From Candidatus Bathyarchaeota archaeon (GTDB lineage: Archaea > Thermoproteota > Bathyarchaeia > Bathyarchaeales > Bathycorpusculaceae): DNA of 64,000 bases. A model generated the notes under the pieces. It saw nothing but the letters and a program-made list of their open reading frames with translations. It made no database searches and was not told the origin of the DNA. Positions 54,518 through 60,016 of the stretch are shown here, in pieces (the stretch's first letter is position 1; the number at the start of each line of letters is the position of its first letter). The translations under genes were made by a program, and so were the position numbers. The stretch is from the NCBI GenBank assembly GCA_963826715.1, contig CAWGYA010000002.1, positions 32,001 to 96,000 of the forward strand, in the 5' to 3' direction.

Positions 54518-54587
54518 TTGGGGTCTGTCATTTTGTCGAATTCTTCATCTTTCCCGATCAGACTGGGACGGCGACATCATCCCCCAA
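54518..54587 (-). ncRNA. Box C/D methylation guide sRNA
   Basis: Minus strand: UUGGGG-G-AUGAUGU(C)-CGCCGUCCCAGU(12-nt guide)-CUGA(D')-UCGGGAAAG-AUGAAGA(C')-AUUCGACAAAAUGA-CAGA(D)-CCCCAA. It has a 6-bp terminal stem, and the box deviations form Watson-Crick pairs in both kink-turn motifs. Confidence 0.75.
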
Positions 54588-54643
54588 CGATTGAAACACC
54601 GTCCCAGTGCTTTAGGGTTTTGGTAAGGGAAAGATGAAAATGA

Positions 54644-55588
54644 ATGAACCAAAAAATCGTCAAAGAACTCTTAAAGCAACTCCAAGAGGAAACCCAAGAC
54701 CCCCAAGACATAGGAAAACTCAACATCACAAACATAATCCTCTGGATGAAAAAACAAGCTTATGAACCAACAACTATTCAGCGAGTAGTTAAAGAACTAA
54801 AACATTTAGAGCGAAACTGTAACACATCCAAACCCGAAGAAGTGAAGCTATACATCGCAAATAAGGCTGTATCGAATGCAAGAAAGGAGAATCTCATAGA
54901 AGCTTACAACATAGCAATTCAATCGTTAGGATTAACATGGAATAAACCATTTTATCAACGCCAAGACAAAAAGCGCAGAGCACCGAAAGAAGAATTAGTC
55001 CAGTTTATCATAAATCACGTCAAGTTTCCATTGAATCTAAAATTAAAAATGAGTAGAGATTTAGGTTCAAGACCAATAGAGCTTACATGGCTAAAAGTCC
55101 AAGACATAGACCTAACCACAGGAAGGACAGACCTCACAGGTGCCAAGCACACAATCGGCAGAGAAGGCAAAATCAAACAAGACACCTTAGAACTGCTAAA
55201 AAGATACATCAAACGAGAGAATCTAAATCCGACAAGCATTGTATTTCCAACGAGTTCAGATGTTTTAAGCACCTGTTATAGGCATGCAAGAAACAGCCTT
55301 GCAGAAAAATACAGCATGCCTGAACTTAAACAAGTACAACTCTACGACTTCCGCAGACGAAAAGGCACCAGAGAATACAAGCTATCGAGTCATAATTTTT
55401 TACACGTTAAAAGAATCTTGGGACACAAAGACGCAAGAAGCACTGAGAAATATATAACCGAAGATGAACAAATCGAATGGATGCCAATAAAATGCACAAC
55501 TGACGAGGAAATACAGCAAGCAATCAAAGAAGACTGCGTCTTAGTATGCCAAGCGAACGGAATTACGTACTTTAAGAAGCCTGCATAG
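54644..55588 (+). CDS. Tyrosine recombinase/integrase
   Basis: GSRPIEL, GAKH, YDFRR, LGHK and TEKY; C-terminal tail similar to that of the 9315 integrase. Confidence 0.88.
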   Translation: MNQKIVKELLKQLQEETQDPQDIGKLNITNIILWMKKQAYEPTTIQRVVKELKHLERNCNTSKPEEVKLYIANKAVSNARKENLIEAYNIAIQSLGLTWNKPFYQRQDKKRRAPKEELVQFIINHVKFPLNLKLKMSRDLGSRPIELTWLKVQDIDLTTGRTDLTGAKHTIGREGKIKQDTLELLKRYIKRENLNPTSIVFPTSSDVLSTCYRHARNSLAEKYSMPELKQVQLYDFRRRKGTREYKLSSHNFLHVKRILGHKDARSTEKYITEDEQIEWMPIKCTTDEEIQQAIKEDCVLVCQANGITYFKKPA

Positions 55589-56658
55589 CTAACTCTTCCT
55601 TTCAAAATCCTTGGCTTTTAATACGAACGAAAGCCAGTGGGATGAAAATTTTCTATAATTGATTACTTCCTTAGCCAAATCATGGATTGAAGATAATCCA
55701 CCGACAACTGATAAGGGAATATTCGAGAATGCTCCCATAAAAGCACTTAAAATAACGCCCTTTTTGCTCGGAGCAAATTCCCAAATCTCTTTCAACAAAT
55801 CTTGAGCAAAAACATCTTTTATATCAAAATCACCAGTTTTTAATTTTTGACTTAATTCTAAAACTTTCGTTCTAAAAGAAGTCAAAGCTTTGTCCTTTCT
55901 GAGTTTAATTATCTGTTCAAGAGATAATTCGGAAAAATCTGGAAAAATAGCGGTCTCAGCTAATTTTTCAAGCACCGAAAACTGTCTTCCTATCTGACTT
56001 TTCGTTTTAAGAGCAAGTAAATTTGAATAAATAGAGTCAACACCCACTGTTATGTCAGTCTTACTGGAAATTAATAGTGAATCATTAAGATTATTTAAGA
56101 AAGCGATTGCAGGCAAAGTACCAAGAGTTCTTTTAACAGTTTCAGCAAAATCGTTATCAGCCATATCTCTTTCAGTTCTAAAGGTTACCTGCTCATAGTG
56201 GTCACTAAATCGATTAATGTCCAAATATTCAATGAAATCAGGCTTACCAAACTTCCCCGACTCAATTTCCGACATTATATCTAATGTACGAAAATCTGCA
56301 ATGAAATAATCCGCTTTCTCGACTTTGTACTTGTGGGCATCAACAAAAAAACGCCCAAGATACGGGCTCTATGAGTAATAAACATGTCTTCGTTATTAAT
56401 TTGAACCCGTTGAATTTCATTGAGCACCTGTTCTTTAGTATTAAACTCACCCCAAGGAGTAAACCCCTGAAGAACGGCATCTTTGCCTTCCAATTTATAC
56501 GTTCCAGTTTCAAACATTACTTTATCATACAGGATGAGGCTTTGCTTGATACGTTTAGAAATGTCATTGTCACCCCAACGCTGAAATGACTTAATATTGG
56601 TTGATAATGGGAAGATTATACTCGACGTAACCATAGCTTTGTATTGAGTCGTTCTCAA
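55589..56658 (-). pseudogene. Cargo gene split by a -1 frameshift at or near a T7 run
   Basis: The frame of the 228-aa ORF stays open upstream (..FFVDAHKYKVEKADYFIADFRTLDIM..) and overlaps the 125-aa ORF at the A7 run 56345-56351. Confidence 0.6.
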
Positions 56659-56784
56659 TATAAGTAATGCCTTAATTGAATTGAAATAAAATAGACTTTG
56701 GTAAAAAATATGTCATCTTGTCTTCGCTCCCGCTTCGCGGGCGCTCCGCTTGACCCTTGCCGAATGTTGCGCAAGAGCCAAACG

Positions 56785-57108
56785 CTATTCGCATGAGTCA
56801 TCTATCTCTTCACCTTCCCAAAAATCACCTTCAGGAATAACGCCAATTTGTTTATGAGAGAGCACTTTGAACTCTCCTGCAACAAAATCGCAGATACTAA
56901 CAAGCTCAATATGCCCACCATATCTATGGTTCTCAAAAACACCCACGCTACGAACCCGAAGTTGTTTATTTGAGATTTTAGTGGCTTGAAATTCGATGAC
57001 ATGAGGCAATGAAAAAAGGTTTTCTTTCTCGATGAATTTGGTACAATCTTCACCAATGTCAATTTTCGCCCATAAGCGCTCAATTCGTCTTCTCTGTTGG
57101 CGTATCAT
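56785..57108 (-). CDS. Hypothetical protein directly downstream of Rep
   Basis: 107-aa ORF abutting the Rep stop codon. Confidence 0.6.
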   Translation of the reverse strand: MIRQQRRRIERLWAKIDIGEDCTKFIEKENLFSLPHVIEFQATKISNKQLRVRSVGVFENHRYGGHIELVSICDFVAGEFKVLSHKQIGVIPEGDFWEGEEIDDSCE

Positions 57109-58819: not shown

Positions 58820-58849
58820 GCGAGCAACCACAAGGGTTGCCGCCGACTA
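58820..58849. repeat. 30-bp hairpin motif identical (inverted) to 5113-5142
   Basis: GCGAGCAACCACAAGGGTTGCCGCCGACTA, 38 bp after the wHTH stop codon. Confidence 0.95.
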
Positions 58850-58938
58850 TACACCTAAATCCTTCCTCTGTCTAAGAGAATCAGGTTACTATTGAGGAAA
58901 ACACCTCAATAACCTGACACGAGTTCTCTTAATCGTGC

Positions 58939-59232
58939 TTAGAGTGGTCTTAGGTAGATAGCTAATTGATCTTTTGTTACATTAAGAGTTATTCCATTTT
59001 CTGTGCAGCATAAATCGCCTTTTTGTAACGCAGAAATTGCCAATGTGTTTCTTGGAAGATTGAACATCGCTGGAGTTGCGCCAAGGATTTCTTTACTAGC
59101 TTCCTTTGTTAACTCGATTTCAAGGTGCGTTATTTTCCACTCCTCTTTATCTATAACTATTTCTTTCACTTTTCCAACCACAAAACCGTTAGCTCCAGTT
59201 ACAATTTGGTCAACTAATTGATTAAATCTCAT
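58939..59232 (-). CDS. PRC-barrel domain protein (inside element 2)
   Basis: V.GANG..VGKVKEIVID...WKITHLEI pattern. Confidence 0.75.
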   Translation of the reverse strand: MRFNQLVDQIVTGANGFVVGKVKEIVIDKEEWKITHLEIELTKEASKEILGATPAMFNLPRNTLAISALQKGDLCCTENGITLNVTKDQLAIYLRPL

Positions 59233-59660
59233 TTAAAATCAAATCCAACACATATATTACGATTGTTTTCTTATAAAGAGTTTGATAGCCAAGTTAAAAC
59301 AAACGTTTGTTTTTTTAATATTCAACAAAATCCCAAATGAGACAAAAATTTATGGAGGAAATGATTACGTAGATAATTTCGTCCGCAGTAATAATAGGAC
59401 TCCCCCATATCACAGTATTTCTAAGTGTGGCGGTCATAGCTAATGTCATAATGACTCCAAAGATCGCCTCAGACGAAAAACAGAACTACCCAAAATAAGC
59501 CTAGAGCCCCAAAAAACATCCTTATTATGTTAAGTAACGTAGAACAATTAAAATTTTGTAGCTCCCTCAGCAATACAACAAACAGCTAAAGGCTTATAAA
59601 TAGAAACACACAATAAGACAAACCAGTAATTTAGTCTCAGAAAATTACTTTGCCCTAAGG

Positions 59661-59703
59661 CTGGGACGGCGACATCATCCCCCGATGAATAACGCACCGT
59701 CCC
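59661..59703. repeat. Right att site of element 2 with dyad symmetry
   Basis: 23-bp core, 11 variable bp, then CACCGTCCC; same spacing as the left copy. Confidence 0.85.
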
Positions 59704-60016
59704 CGACTAAAAAGCCTTGGGTTCAAGTCGTTAAGATCAATTATGCGATATTCATTTGACTCAATCTTTAGACAGATTTTGCTGAAAAATAGATGGTTTT
59801 GTAGATTCGACTGAAAAGAATGTGTCCCGCTCTGGGGCAATATCTCTGTTTAGTTGTTTTCACATGATCCAACCAATTTAAAAAATTCTAATTTTGGCAC
59901 TACTAAATCGTTCAAAGCAATAGCATTTTGCAAATAGTTTTGACATTTCGAAGGAAAAATTTGAAGTAATCAAGTTTAAGATTCACTTGCTTGCATGCTC
60001 GTTTCTCGAACCATTC

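Follow-up and report, generated by a model that had tools for sequence, protein, structure and literature searches.

An element integrated in the 5' part of a box C/D guide RNA gene of a bathyarchaeon, and the likely replacement of that gene's promoter

Elements that enter tRNA or tmRNA genes by means of a tyrosine recombinase have several things in common: the integrase gene lies beside one of the two attachment (att) sites, the element is flanked by a short repeat that comes from a small stable-RNA gene, this gene is reconstituted upon integration, and the site is re-used, with tandem or decayed elements accumulating there (excerpts of PMC6563490 and PMC3119797). As archaeal integration targets, the available part of PMC6563490 catalogues tRNA genes, protein genes (at their 3' ends) and intergenic regions. 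Here we describe an element of about 5.1 kb from a member of Candidatus Bathyarchaeota that is like these systems in all the points named, but whose target is the gene of a box C/D guide small RNA (sRNA). It was found in a stretch of 64,000 nucleotides (nt), hereafter the window, which is C2:32001-96000 of a 2.64-Mb assembly. Unlike in tRNA and tmRNA targeting, the shared core runs from what is probably the first transcribed nucleotide of the gene, and it is the promoter, not the 3' end, that would be replaced.

An earlier prediction, made from the letters of the window and referred to below as the original prediction, described this arrangement as the reverse of the usual logic of integration at tRNA 3' ends. 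Unusual it is, but not unprecedented, since 5'-distal integration into tRNA genes, for example that of CalSub-E1 in tRNA-Ser, is reported as considerably less frequent in the available part of PMC6563490. There, too, the 5' part of a small RNA gene is recombined and the upstream sequence comes from the element; the differences are that our gene belongs to another class and that a whole integrase clade is dedicated to it (12 of 12 loci, see below). Enterococcus phage phiEf11, which uses ffs (4.5S RNA), is comparable in having a non-tRNA structural RNA as attB and a core of ~27 nt near the integrase; it differs in being a phage of a bacterium that enters the gene of the signal recognition particle RNA, and promoter replacement is not among the features described in the accessible portion of PMC12540744. 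The full texts searched (supplements apart) contain no case of an element that enters a C/D sRNA gene, and the terms 'sRNA' and 'non-coding RNA' do not occur in the available portion of the review PMC8371274.

There is nothing out of the ordinary in the mechanism: a tyrosine recombinase integrates the element site-specifically, and its own gene is kept intact. What is unusual is the choice of a C/D guide RNA gene as target, a core at the presumed transcription start, the probable replacement of a promoter and the dedicated integrase clade. Our reading of the locus, to which we would give a probability of about 0.72 as a whole, is as follows. An integrative plasmid-like element of ~5.1 kb would have recombined site-specifically with the first 23 nt of the sole copy of the sRNA gene, at a site that is used recurrently. 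As the core starts at the first nucleotide of the RNA, presumably the transcription start, everything upstream would be exchanged; a motif of the element resembling a B recognition element and TATA box (BRE/TATA-like) would take the position of the old one and most likely drive the sRNA, while the displaced older promoter at the right end would now face the minus-strand genes of the element. Through its D' guide the RNA would lead fibrillarin to 2'-O-methylate the second G in the GGGG of the 23S rRNA P-loop. A mobile element would then be tied to the expression of the guide for one of the very few rRNA methylations that are conserved across the domains of life, and a box C/D guide-RNA gene would be added to the dedicated targets of an integrase clade. 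This also suggests that some att sites described as 'intergenic' may hide unannotated sRNA genes.

Repeats, empty sites and a dedicated integrase clade

A repeat search over the window gives a pair of direct repeats of 46 nt, 54560-54605 and 59658-59703, which are 85% identical and spaced by 5098 bp. They contain an exact core of 23 bp, CTGGGACGGCGACATCATCCCCC, at 54563-54585 (attL) and 59661-59683 (attR). With up to three mismatches allowed, the 23-mer occurs at just 2 sites in the whole assembly, and a reversed control pattern has 0 matches. Read on the minus strand it is GGGGG-AUGAUGU-CGCCGUCCCAG and comprises the sRNA's 5' stem strand, its box C and 11 of the 12 nt of its D' guide (sRNA nucleotides +1 to +23). 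At the left junction the core is continued by the complete sRNA body (U-CUGA, a linker of 9 nt, AUGAAGA, 14 nt, CAGA and CCCC), with element DNA upstream. The right copy is followed on the minus strand by element DNA, CCUUAGGGCAAAG... (C-CUUA-GGGC), so the position of the D' box reads CUUA; this copy is a truncated 5' fragment of the sRNA without C', D or 3' stem, and a TATA-like sequence at 59707-59714 lies 23 nt before its GGGGG. The composition of the core, the complete body on the left and the truncated copy on the right are all as the original prediction had them.

The element itself (54586-59660) is bounded by the repeats and is absent from the corresponding sites of two genomes of the same genus, G140 and G186. 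G140 has, in one uninterrupted stretch, the 44 nt found upstream of the attR core of the window, then the core, then the sRNA body of attL; 43 of the 44 nt upstream of the intact sRNA are identical to the window sequence upstream of the attR core, and in the alignment the similarity switches exactly at both edges of the core. The empty site of G186 has the same arrangement, with matches of 93% and 97%. Window positions 59727-59658 match the two empty sites at 97% (G140) and 93% (G186), and are joined there straight to 54585-54517. Comparison with the empty locus of relatives had been proposed together with the original prediction, and in both genomes the flanks do join exactly at the core. Of the marks of a site-specific integrative element, the locus has direct repeats at its ends and, in relatives, an unoccupied site where the two flanks meet at the repeat: an element of 5.1 kb is inserted in the 5' part of the sRNA gene.

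Directly after the attR core the element ends with CCTTAGGGCAAAGTAA (59645-59660, minus strand), and a motif identical or near-identical to this follows a partial att copy in nine other genomes (G055, G058, G065, G073, G008, G010, G019, G045 and G003). An exact 31-mer made of the last 8 nt of this end and the core occurs in 57 metagenome contigs, 13 of which have a second att copy. The 23-bp core, the element end and the covariance model of the sRNA described below can serve as probes for this plasmid-like family in metagenomes of Bathyarchaeia type. Two of the loci, L089 and L104, were considered as circular forms and rejected, because both contigs begin in the sRNA body and are integrated copies.

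The integrase gene (54644-55588, plus strand, 314 aa) is divergent from the sRNA and starts 58 nt from its 5' end. Its product matches Pfam Phage_integrase (5.4e-7, above the cut-off) and a PHROG integrase (8.5e-11). The weak similarity to the NCBIfam XerA-type model (1.2e-9, below the cut-off with 38 bits vs 220) and the lack of a PDB match (phmmer, 0 matches at E up to 0.1) set it apart from curated integrase models; tblastn against phage records gave no match either. Residues R143, K168, Y234-x-x-R237, H261 and Y270 are invariant in an alignment of 10 sequences, the other nine being orthologues or paralogues. Judging by the motif pattern we take these to be the catalytic residues, and the protein is full-length and has all of them. 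Archaeal integrases whose gene is left intact are of the pNOB8 type, and the present gene, which is intact after integration and lies beside attL, is like them. The int gene of SSV-type integrases is split by integration (excerpts of PMC3119797 and PMC7253208).

A match to the integrase family exists in 53 of 61 genomes of the genus, and 13 genomes besides this one have an integrase that is 53-88% identical. We examined 12 of these 13 loci together, the remaining one being that of G022 (L004). Without exception, an integrase or its remnant starts at a distance of 27-60 nt upstream of a complete sRNA, the two being divergent. In eight of the 12 (G055, G058, G065 with two copies, G073, G008, G010, G019 and G045) there is a partial att copy 1.3-7.3 kb away, and each time it precedes the element-end motif CCTTAGGGCAAAGT.... 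Two tandem remnants are seen in G003 (locus L025, G003:C1:1094000-1112000), where partial att copies stand 4.2 and 7.0 kb upstream of the sRNA; in one of these the identity extends through D'. The integrases of G022, G023, G019, G045 and G003 are truncated, frameshifted or contain stop codons. Decayed integrases, the tandem remnants and a fragment of a related element in G014 together indicate that elements enter, decay and get overlaid. Although related genomes are non-independent samples, one integrase clade is dedicated to the sRNA site, and the sRNA locus is a recurrent landing site across the genus.

The core is an imperfect palindrome, GGGAUG-AUGUCGC-CGUCCC, and its arms of 6 bases around 7 bases have the geometry of the core site of a tyrosine recombinase. 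In other genomes attL and attR differ at +1 (G055, G045, G003), +3 (G073) and +13 (G019). Provided that these differences are not later mutations, the crossover would fall inside the core.

The guide RNA and its predicted target

According to a covariance model (R1, E 1.6e-17, the sole match in the genome) the sRNA gene has 66 nt and occupies 54520-54585 of the minus strand; the span of 54587-54518 given by the original prediction was right in location, but not in its exact limits. From the 5' end the RNA consists of a stem strand GGGG(G) (54585-54581), box C AUGAUGU (54580-54574), a D' guide of 12 nt, CGCCGUCCCAGU (54573-54562), box D' CUGA (54561-54558), a linker of 9 nt, UCGGGAAAG, box C' AUGAAGA (54548-54542), a degenerate D-guide region of 14 nt (54541-54528), a variant box D CAGA (54527-54524) and the 3' stem strand CCCC (54523-54520), all on the minus strand. 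The consensus of box C is RUGAUGA and the canonical box D is CUGA; box C of the window sRNA, which stands beside the terminal stem, agrees with the consensus at 6 of 7 positions.

We aligned 28 homologues from seven families. Invariant or nearly so are the GGGG stem, AUGAUG, ten nt of the guide (GCCGUCCCAG), D' as C-N-GA, C' as AUGA-N-GA, CAGA and CCCC, while the linker between D' and C' differs in length and sequence between families. Fixed boxes and a fixed guide together with a free linker are what one would expect if the sequence is a C/D guide RNA; a protein-coding or a purely structural sequence would not be expected to vary in this way. Box C and D' are spaced by exactly 12 nt; D' of the relatives is CUGA, CCGA or CAGA, and their C' is AUGA(A/G/C)GA. 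The spacing between C' and D is 12 nt outside the genus and 14 nt in the window, this region being variable. As box D is CAGA in 28 of 28 homologues and the GA needed for sheared G-A pairs is retained, we would regard the U-to-A change as a lineage variant that was fixed across the order rather than as decay.

With the 111 nt around the left junction as query, blastn has matches at E <1e-9 in 21 of 24 genomes of the genus; the completeness of the other three is 56, 58 and 88%, and weaker matches occur in other families of the order. The covariance model, which was built on the alignment of the 28 copies, places the sRNA in 104 of 151 genomes sampled from the order; the counts are 80 of 105 among high-quality genomes, 32 of 35 for the family and 12 of 12 for the genus. 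The gene is almost always single-copy, as it is here. A second full copy, with an intact D guide, was observed elsewhere in the chromosome of G003. The genome encodes fibrillarin (PF01269, 1.2e-93), Nop5 in the adjacent gene (PF01798, 5.1e-72) and L7Ae (PF01248, 9.2e-29). Taken together, these data support the 66-nt feature as a real, conserved box C/D sRNA, which is the identity that the original prediction had proposed; it had also pointed to conservation in relatives as the place where it might fail, and the boxes, the stem and ten guide nt turn out to be invariant there.

The D' and D guides were scanned for pairing against the organism's own 16S and 23S rRNA. The best site of the D' guide in either rRNA is GCUGGGGCGGCA in 23S rRNA, with 11 of 12 pairs, 9 of them Watson-Crick and 10 contiguous. 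Under the N+5 rule, methylation is directed to the nucleotide in the fifth pair from box D'; when five guide positions are counted upstream from D', the rRNA partner of the fifth is the second G in the GGGG of the helix-80 P-loop. From two landmarks with an equal offset we take this G to be E. coli position 2251, the numbering being obtained via record L036, a bacterial-type 23S rRNA that is perhaps not E. coli's own sequence and is one of just two small records with a 23S annotation in an E. coli collection. The D' guide would accordingly select the equivalent of E. coli Gm2251 for 2'-O-methylation, and the yeast guide for Gm in the P-loop is snR67. An Rfam scan of the window gave no family at threshold for the sRNA, the only match being a weak one to this very family (snR67, RF01177, 20.4 bits, E 0.81; gathering score 55). 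The target G is the same for the archaeal sRNA presumed to serve Gm1950 of H. marismortui; Gm2251 corresponds to this residue, which is listed with aFIB and an sRNA, and to yeast Gm2619 (excerpts of PMC11542601, Table 1 included). E. coli residues 2251/2252 in the helix-80 P-loop contact P-site tRNA at its CCA end, and sRNA-guided modification of the G2251 equivalent was predicted in three archaea (excerpts of PMC4644070). With a score below the Rfam gathering threshold our RNA is not a member of the snR67 family; it is an archaeal sRNA of 66 nt whose box D reads CAGA and whose second guide is degenerate in the genus.

A second guide of 12 nt, ACUCAUGACGGA or near variants, is conserved outside the genus and forms 10 contiguous pairs with 23S rRNA at ACCGUCGUGAGA; we noted it at loci L022, L026, L037, L038, L067 and L069. 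In the window and most of the genus the D guide is variable in length and sequence and degenerate, and the D-guide region of the window has no convincing rRNA target (best 10 of 12 pairs, 7-8 Watson-Crick). Within the genus it is intact in G024, the second copy of G003, G068, G055, G017 and G124.

Promoter replacement and its alternatives

From the upstream regions of 37 tRNA genes of the genome, whose BRE/TATA-like motifs are of the type AAAGGTTTTATG or AAAACCTAAATA, we derived a weight matrix of 12 nt, which is admittedly crude. The original prediction held that the upstream region of the sRNA had been swapped, and indeed element DNA now replaces the sequence of attR type. This DNA has a BRE/TATA-like motif, AAAACCCTAAAG (54610-54621, minus strand), which probably serves as the promoter of the sRNA after integration and is possibly shared with int. 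It scores 8.4 bits at -36, equal to the 75th percentile of the tRNA genes, the 95th and 99th percentiles of random 40-nt windows being 6.7 and 8.9 bits; the octamer CCCTAAAG within it (54617-54610, minus strand) ends 24 nt before the start of the sRNA. The displaced older upstream region at attR (59695-59714, minus strand) has a TATA-like CTTTTTAG at 59714-59707 and a sequence CGGGGACGGTG at 59705-59695 that resembles site A (see below); its motif, AAGGCTTTTTAG, scores 6.4 bits at -35. Across loci the motif is locked in position: within 60 nt upstream of the sRNA, 46 of 59 loci have a best matrix match that starts between -37 and -33, no matter where their upstream DNA comes from.

The TATA-to-start distance of archaea would put the transcription start at the first G of GGGGG or within 2 nt of it. 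The block of identity begins at that very G, so the mature RNA would be unchanged by integration and the promoter alone exchanged; with a crossover at the transcription start it would be the element, and not the host, that supplies the promoter. The original prediction left it at the statement that the element must either drive the sRNA or silence an rRNA modification. The first of these is favoured by an element motif at equal spacing, and from the sequence we infer that the element drives the sRNA after integration, promoter replacement being more likely than silencing. The locus would offer a testable system for how far a host tolerates the replacement of a promoter in an important RNA gene, and for whether elements exploit this.

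Between the TATA-like motif and the presumed start lies a further sequence, site A, CTGGGACGGTG (54597-54607, minus strand; -22 to -12), which is the reverse complement of the guide part of the core. When the motif CTGGGAYGNTG is scored in the 27 nt upstream of the 59 loci, 36 have a score of 8 of 10 or more, in every case at -19 to -22, while 0.8% of random windows score as high; the motif was defined by eye from loci later counted, and the enrichment is descriptive. A score of 8 is reached in 17 of 19 loci with an adjacent integrase match, whereas five loci in the context of rpp30-pop5 score 4, 5, 6, 7 and 8. Some loci of the genus without integrase (G006, G124 and G052) have no site A and keep the TATA-like motif. 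Given its location, the free tenth position of the motif and its rarity in loci of the ancestral context, we favour site A as an extra integrase-binding arm of attP over a role as RNA leader.

The attP site that can be reconstructed from the two junctions would be a longer imperfect palindrome, with CCCTAAAG on the int side and CCCTAAGG on the other. These octamers at the element ends are near-identical and inverted (CCCTAAGG at 59653-59660 on the plus strand, CCCTAAAG at 54610-54617 on the minus strand), and in attP the distance of each to the core edge would be 23-24 nt. In a circular form they would stand on either side of the att site, facing one another, and integration separates them. 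In elements of the G004 type (L011, L084 and L105) the start codon of the integrase is just 27-28 nt from the start of the sRNA, and the TATA-like box of the sRNA, TTCATATTAG, is the reverse complement of the first codons of the integrase.

A number of observations weigh against the reading given above, or against parts of it. A free circular form or an attP junction was not found, the 31-mer gave 0 viral contigs, and a terminal overlap of at least 15 nt is present in 0 of the 57 metagenome contigs that contain it. Four of the 12 integrase-bearing loci have no second att copy in the DNA examined. As to the promoter, 13 of the 59 loci place the best match outside -37 to -33 or score low, and the matches of the matrix upstream of tRNA genes are scattered from -60 to -12. 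The sole RNA run found, metatranscriptome X1, consists of relatives' contigs and cannot show transcription, ends or strand; it held 0.04 of the sampled words, and its 5 contigs, 85-99% alike, cover the conserved part of the sRNA, one of them covering the junction of sRNA and integrase. With CAGA for CUGA and a box C that ends in U the kink-turn would be non-canonical, though invariant. The duplex of guide and target has two G-U pairs and an end mismatch. Against a unique target, 11 of 12 pairs (8 Watson-Crick) can likewise be formed with tRNA-Cys and tRNA-Ser(CGA), at their 5' ends. Finally, a rolling-circle replication (Rep) protein, and hence an integrated small plasmid, is a lead only, for reasons given with the gene content below.

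Could integration instead silence or weaken the sRNA, its new upstream DNA being an inadequate promoter and P-loop methylation lost or reduced? The octamer CCCTAAAG is indeed more G+C-rich than the TTTAAA-like boxes of tRNA type, nothing would compensate for a single-copy gene, and run X1 speaks for sRNA expression neither way. However, the motif of the element scores at the 75th percentile of tRNA promoters and above the one it displaced, its position is kept in 46 of 59 loci, and the sRNA body is fully conserved in 12 other occupied genomes. Had occupation inactivated the gene, such conservation over evolutionary time would hardly be expected. We consider silencing unlikely. Another view is that the element is a fixed, immobile relic whose repeats mark an old insertion and have no present function. 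The failure to find a circular form or attP junction in viral and 57 metagenome contigs fits this, as do the five genomes with truncated or stop-containing integrases beside the sRNA and G014, which keeps just a fragment of a related element. Against it stand the full-length integrase of the window with all its presumed catalytic residues, the identity of the two cores at 23 of 23 bp, and the fact that genomes of one genus differ in presence or absence of the element exactly at the core. That the element is a relic seems to us improbable, though worth keeping in mind, and we would rather think that it is still capable of movement.

The long hairpins into which the RNA would fold with site A included are a reason to think of regulation or processing at the RNA level, in which site A would be transcribed as a leader and mask the D' guide instead of being a DNA site for the integrase. 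At attL the hairpin has -31.0 kcal/mol (z -1.9) and at attR -31.5 kcal/mol (z -5.1; of 200 shuffled sequences, 0 fold equally well), and several variants keep the pairing through G-U-compatible transitions. But the TATA-like motif lies upstream of site A and is spaced for a start at GGGGG, which would leave site A outside the transcript; any of G, A, C and T can stand at position 10 of the motif, while the invariant guide shows no change that would compensate; site A is mostly missing where the sRNA is in the rpp30-pop5 context (4-8 of 10); and some loci of the genus have a TATA-like motif and no site A at all. A leader is, in our opinion, quite unlikely. It is hardly credible that the conserved 66 nt are a DNA recombination site or some other RNA and not a methylation guide. 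One could point to the sub-threshold Rfam match, the non-canonical box D and the fact that the sRNA alone has no significant fold (z -0.23). Yet the sequence is conserved in families and loci without a nearby integrase, in the housekeeping context rpp30-pop5-sRNA-L15e, the geometry of boxes, spacer and guide is exact, with 12 nt between C and D', and outside the genus a second 12-nt guide is conserved that pairs with 23S rRNA. Promoter replacement at a genuine guide RNA gene remains our preferred reading.

This reading invites a speculation, which we put forward tentatively and hold to be doubtful. The P-loop guide gene of the genus may lack a promoter of its own and be permanently run from the promoters of successive integrative plasmids. 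Each integration would then be a reciprocal exchange of promoters, and the facing octamers of attP would couple the expression of int and of the element to the episomal or integrated state. If true, the resident promoter, once displaced, points into the minus-strand genes of the element (PRC-barrel, Rep-like and others).

History of the locus, gene content and surroundings

Downstream of the sRNA the chromosomal neighbour is a gene for a NosD/beta-helix protein (52581-54434, minus strand, identified by a Pfam match). A homologue is found beside the sRNA in nine other genomes of the genus, with 46-54% identity in seven (G014, G001, G015, G012, G022, G023 and G045) and 30-37% in G008 and G180. 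This recurrence indicates that the sRNA body sits at a fixed chromosomal place, with the variable DNA upstream. We also considered that a complete sRNA travels with the element; this was rejected, because the NosD-like gene is syntenic in nine genomes and the empty sites keep the sRNA.

The original prediction also saw the sRNA as uncoupled from its former promoter, left behind at the right junction. The swap of upstream regions stands, but the displaced sequence is not the original chromosomal promoter. The upstream type found at attR of the window (AACCCAAGGCTTTTTAGTCGGGGACGGTGC...) adjoins a 60%-identical integrase in G065, and it is accompanied by short open reading frame (ORF) remnants alone in G015, G002, G001, G140 and G186. 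The 'former promoter' at attR is itself what remains of a related element that came earlier.

In families f2 and f7, and in genera g17 and g27 of the same family, the sRNA follows rpp30-pop5, and in f2 the L15e gene comes next. In the present genome rpp30-pop5 and L15e are on contig C1 (C1:84236-91219), ~5.4 kb apart and with no sRNA between them. The location of these genes on another contig without the sRNA means that the sRNA gene moved before or during the radiation of the genus, and the ancestral context rpp30-pop5-sRNA survives just in other genera and families. In the genus the relocated sRNA gene is now upstream of the NosD-like gene.

The ORFs of the element are int and a winged-helix (wHTH) ORF on the plus strand and five ORFs on the minus strand. 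Apart from a PRC-barrel protein, none of the latter has a family match in Pfam, PHROG or NCBIfam. The PRC-barrel ORF (58939-59232, minus strand, 97 aa, Pfam PRC 1.3e-5) is the first ORF of at least 50 aa downstream of attR on the strand of the sRNA and lies clear of the att core. G014 has an 85%-identical copy of 58924-59312, the region of this ORF, upstream of its sRNA. A Cys-rich ORF of 335 aa (57109-58116, minus strand) is a possible rolling-circle Rep. It has no Pfam, PHROG or NCBIfam match at E up to 0.01, that to Rep_1 included, and tblastn against plasmid records gave no match. Its nearest Atlas clusters are hypothetical proteins of Bathyarchaeota; to Rep_1-bearing Atlas clusters, 41-64% of whose members carry Rep_1, it has a feature similarity of 0.95-0.96. 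There are 580 homologues, many on contigs of a few kb, with no Pfam domain among the 120 listed; two of the homologues are named as coming from Bathyarchaeia or Ranarchaeia.

To the right of attR, at 59717-63000 of the window, there is a stretch of low G+C content (33-36%) whose ORFs have no family matches. One of them, of 348 aa (61379-62425), recurs 2.4-3.3 kb upstream of the sRNA in G014. The stretch probably represents decayed older elements or a shared variable neighbourhood.

Of two lineage markers, MCR alpha gave no match with controls that worked, and archaeal AmoA gave none with a control that had no match anywhere either; it is the names and taxa of homologues that point to Bathyarchaeia. 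Elsewhere in the window a second tyrosine recombinase is encoded (9603-10454, plus strand), which is 27% identical to the integrase of the element and matches the XerA-type model at 1.3e-22, below the cut-off. The archaeal RNase P RNA (10497-10795, minus strand) has its 3' end 43 nt from the end of this gene. No repeat linking the two was found (12-nt seed, at least 18 nt), nor a shared exact 13-mer; the second recombinase may nevertheless belong to another element beside a non-tRNA RNA gene. The genome as a whole has 14 matches to the integrase family (E up to 1e-5), two of which adjoin tRNA genes, tRNA-Ser near C7:226859 and tRNA-Cys near C2:504616, and it appears to be rich in integrated elements.

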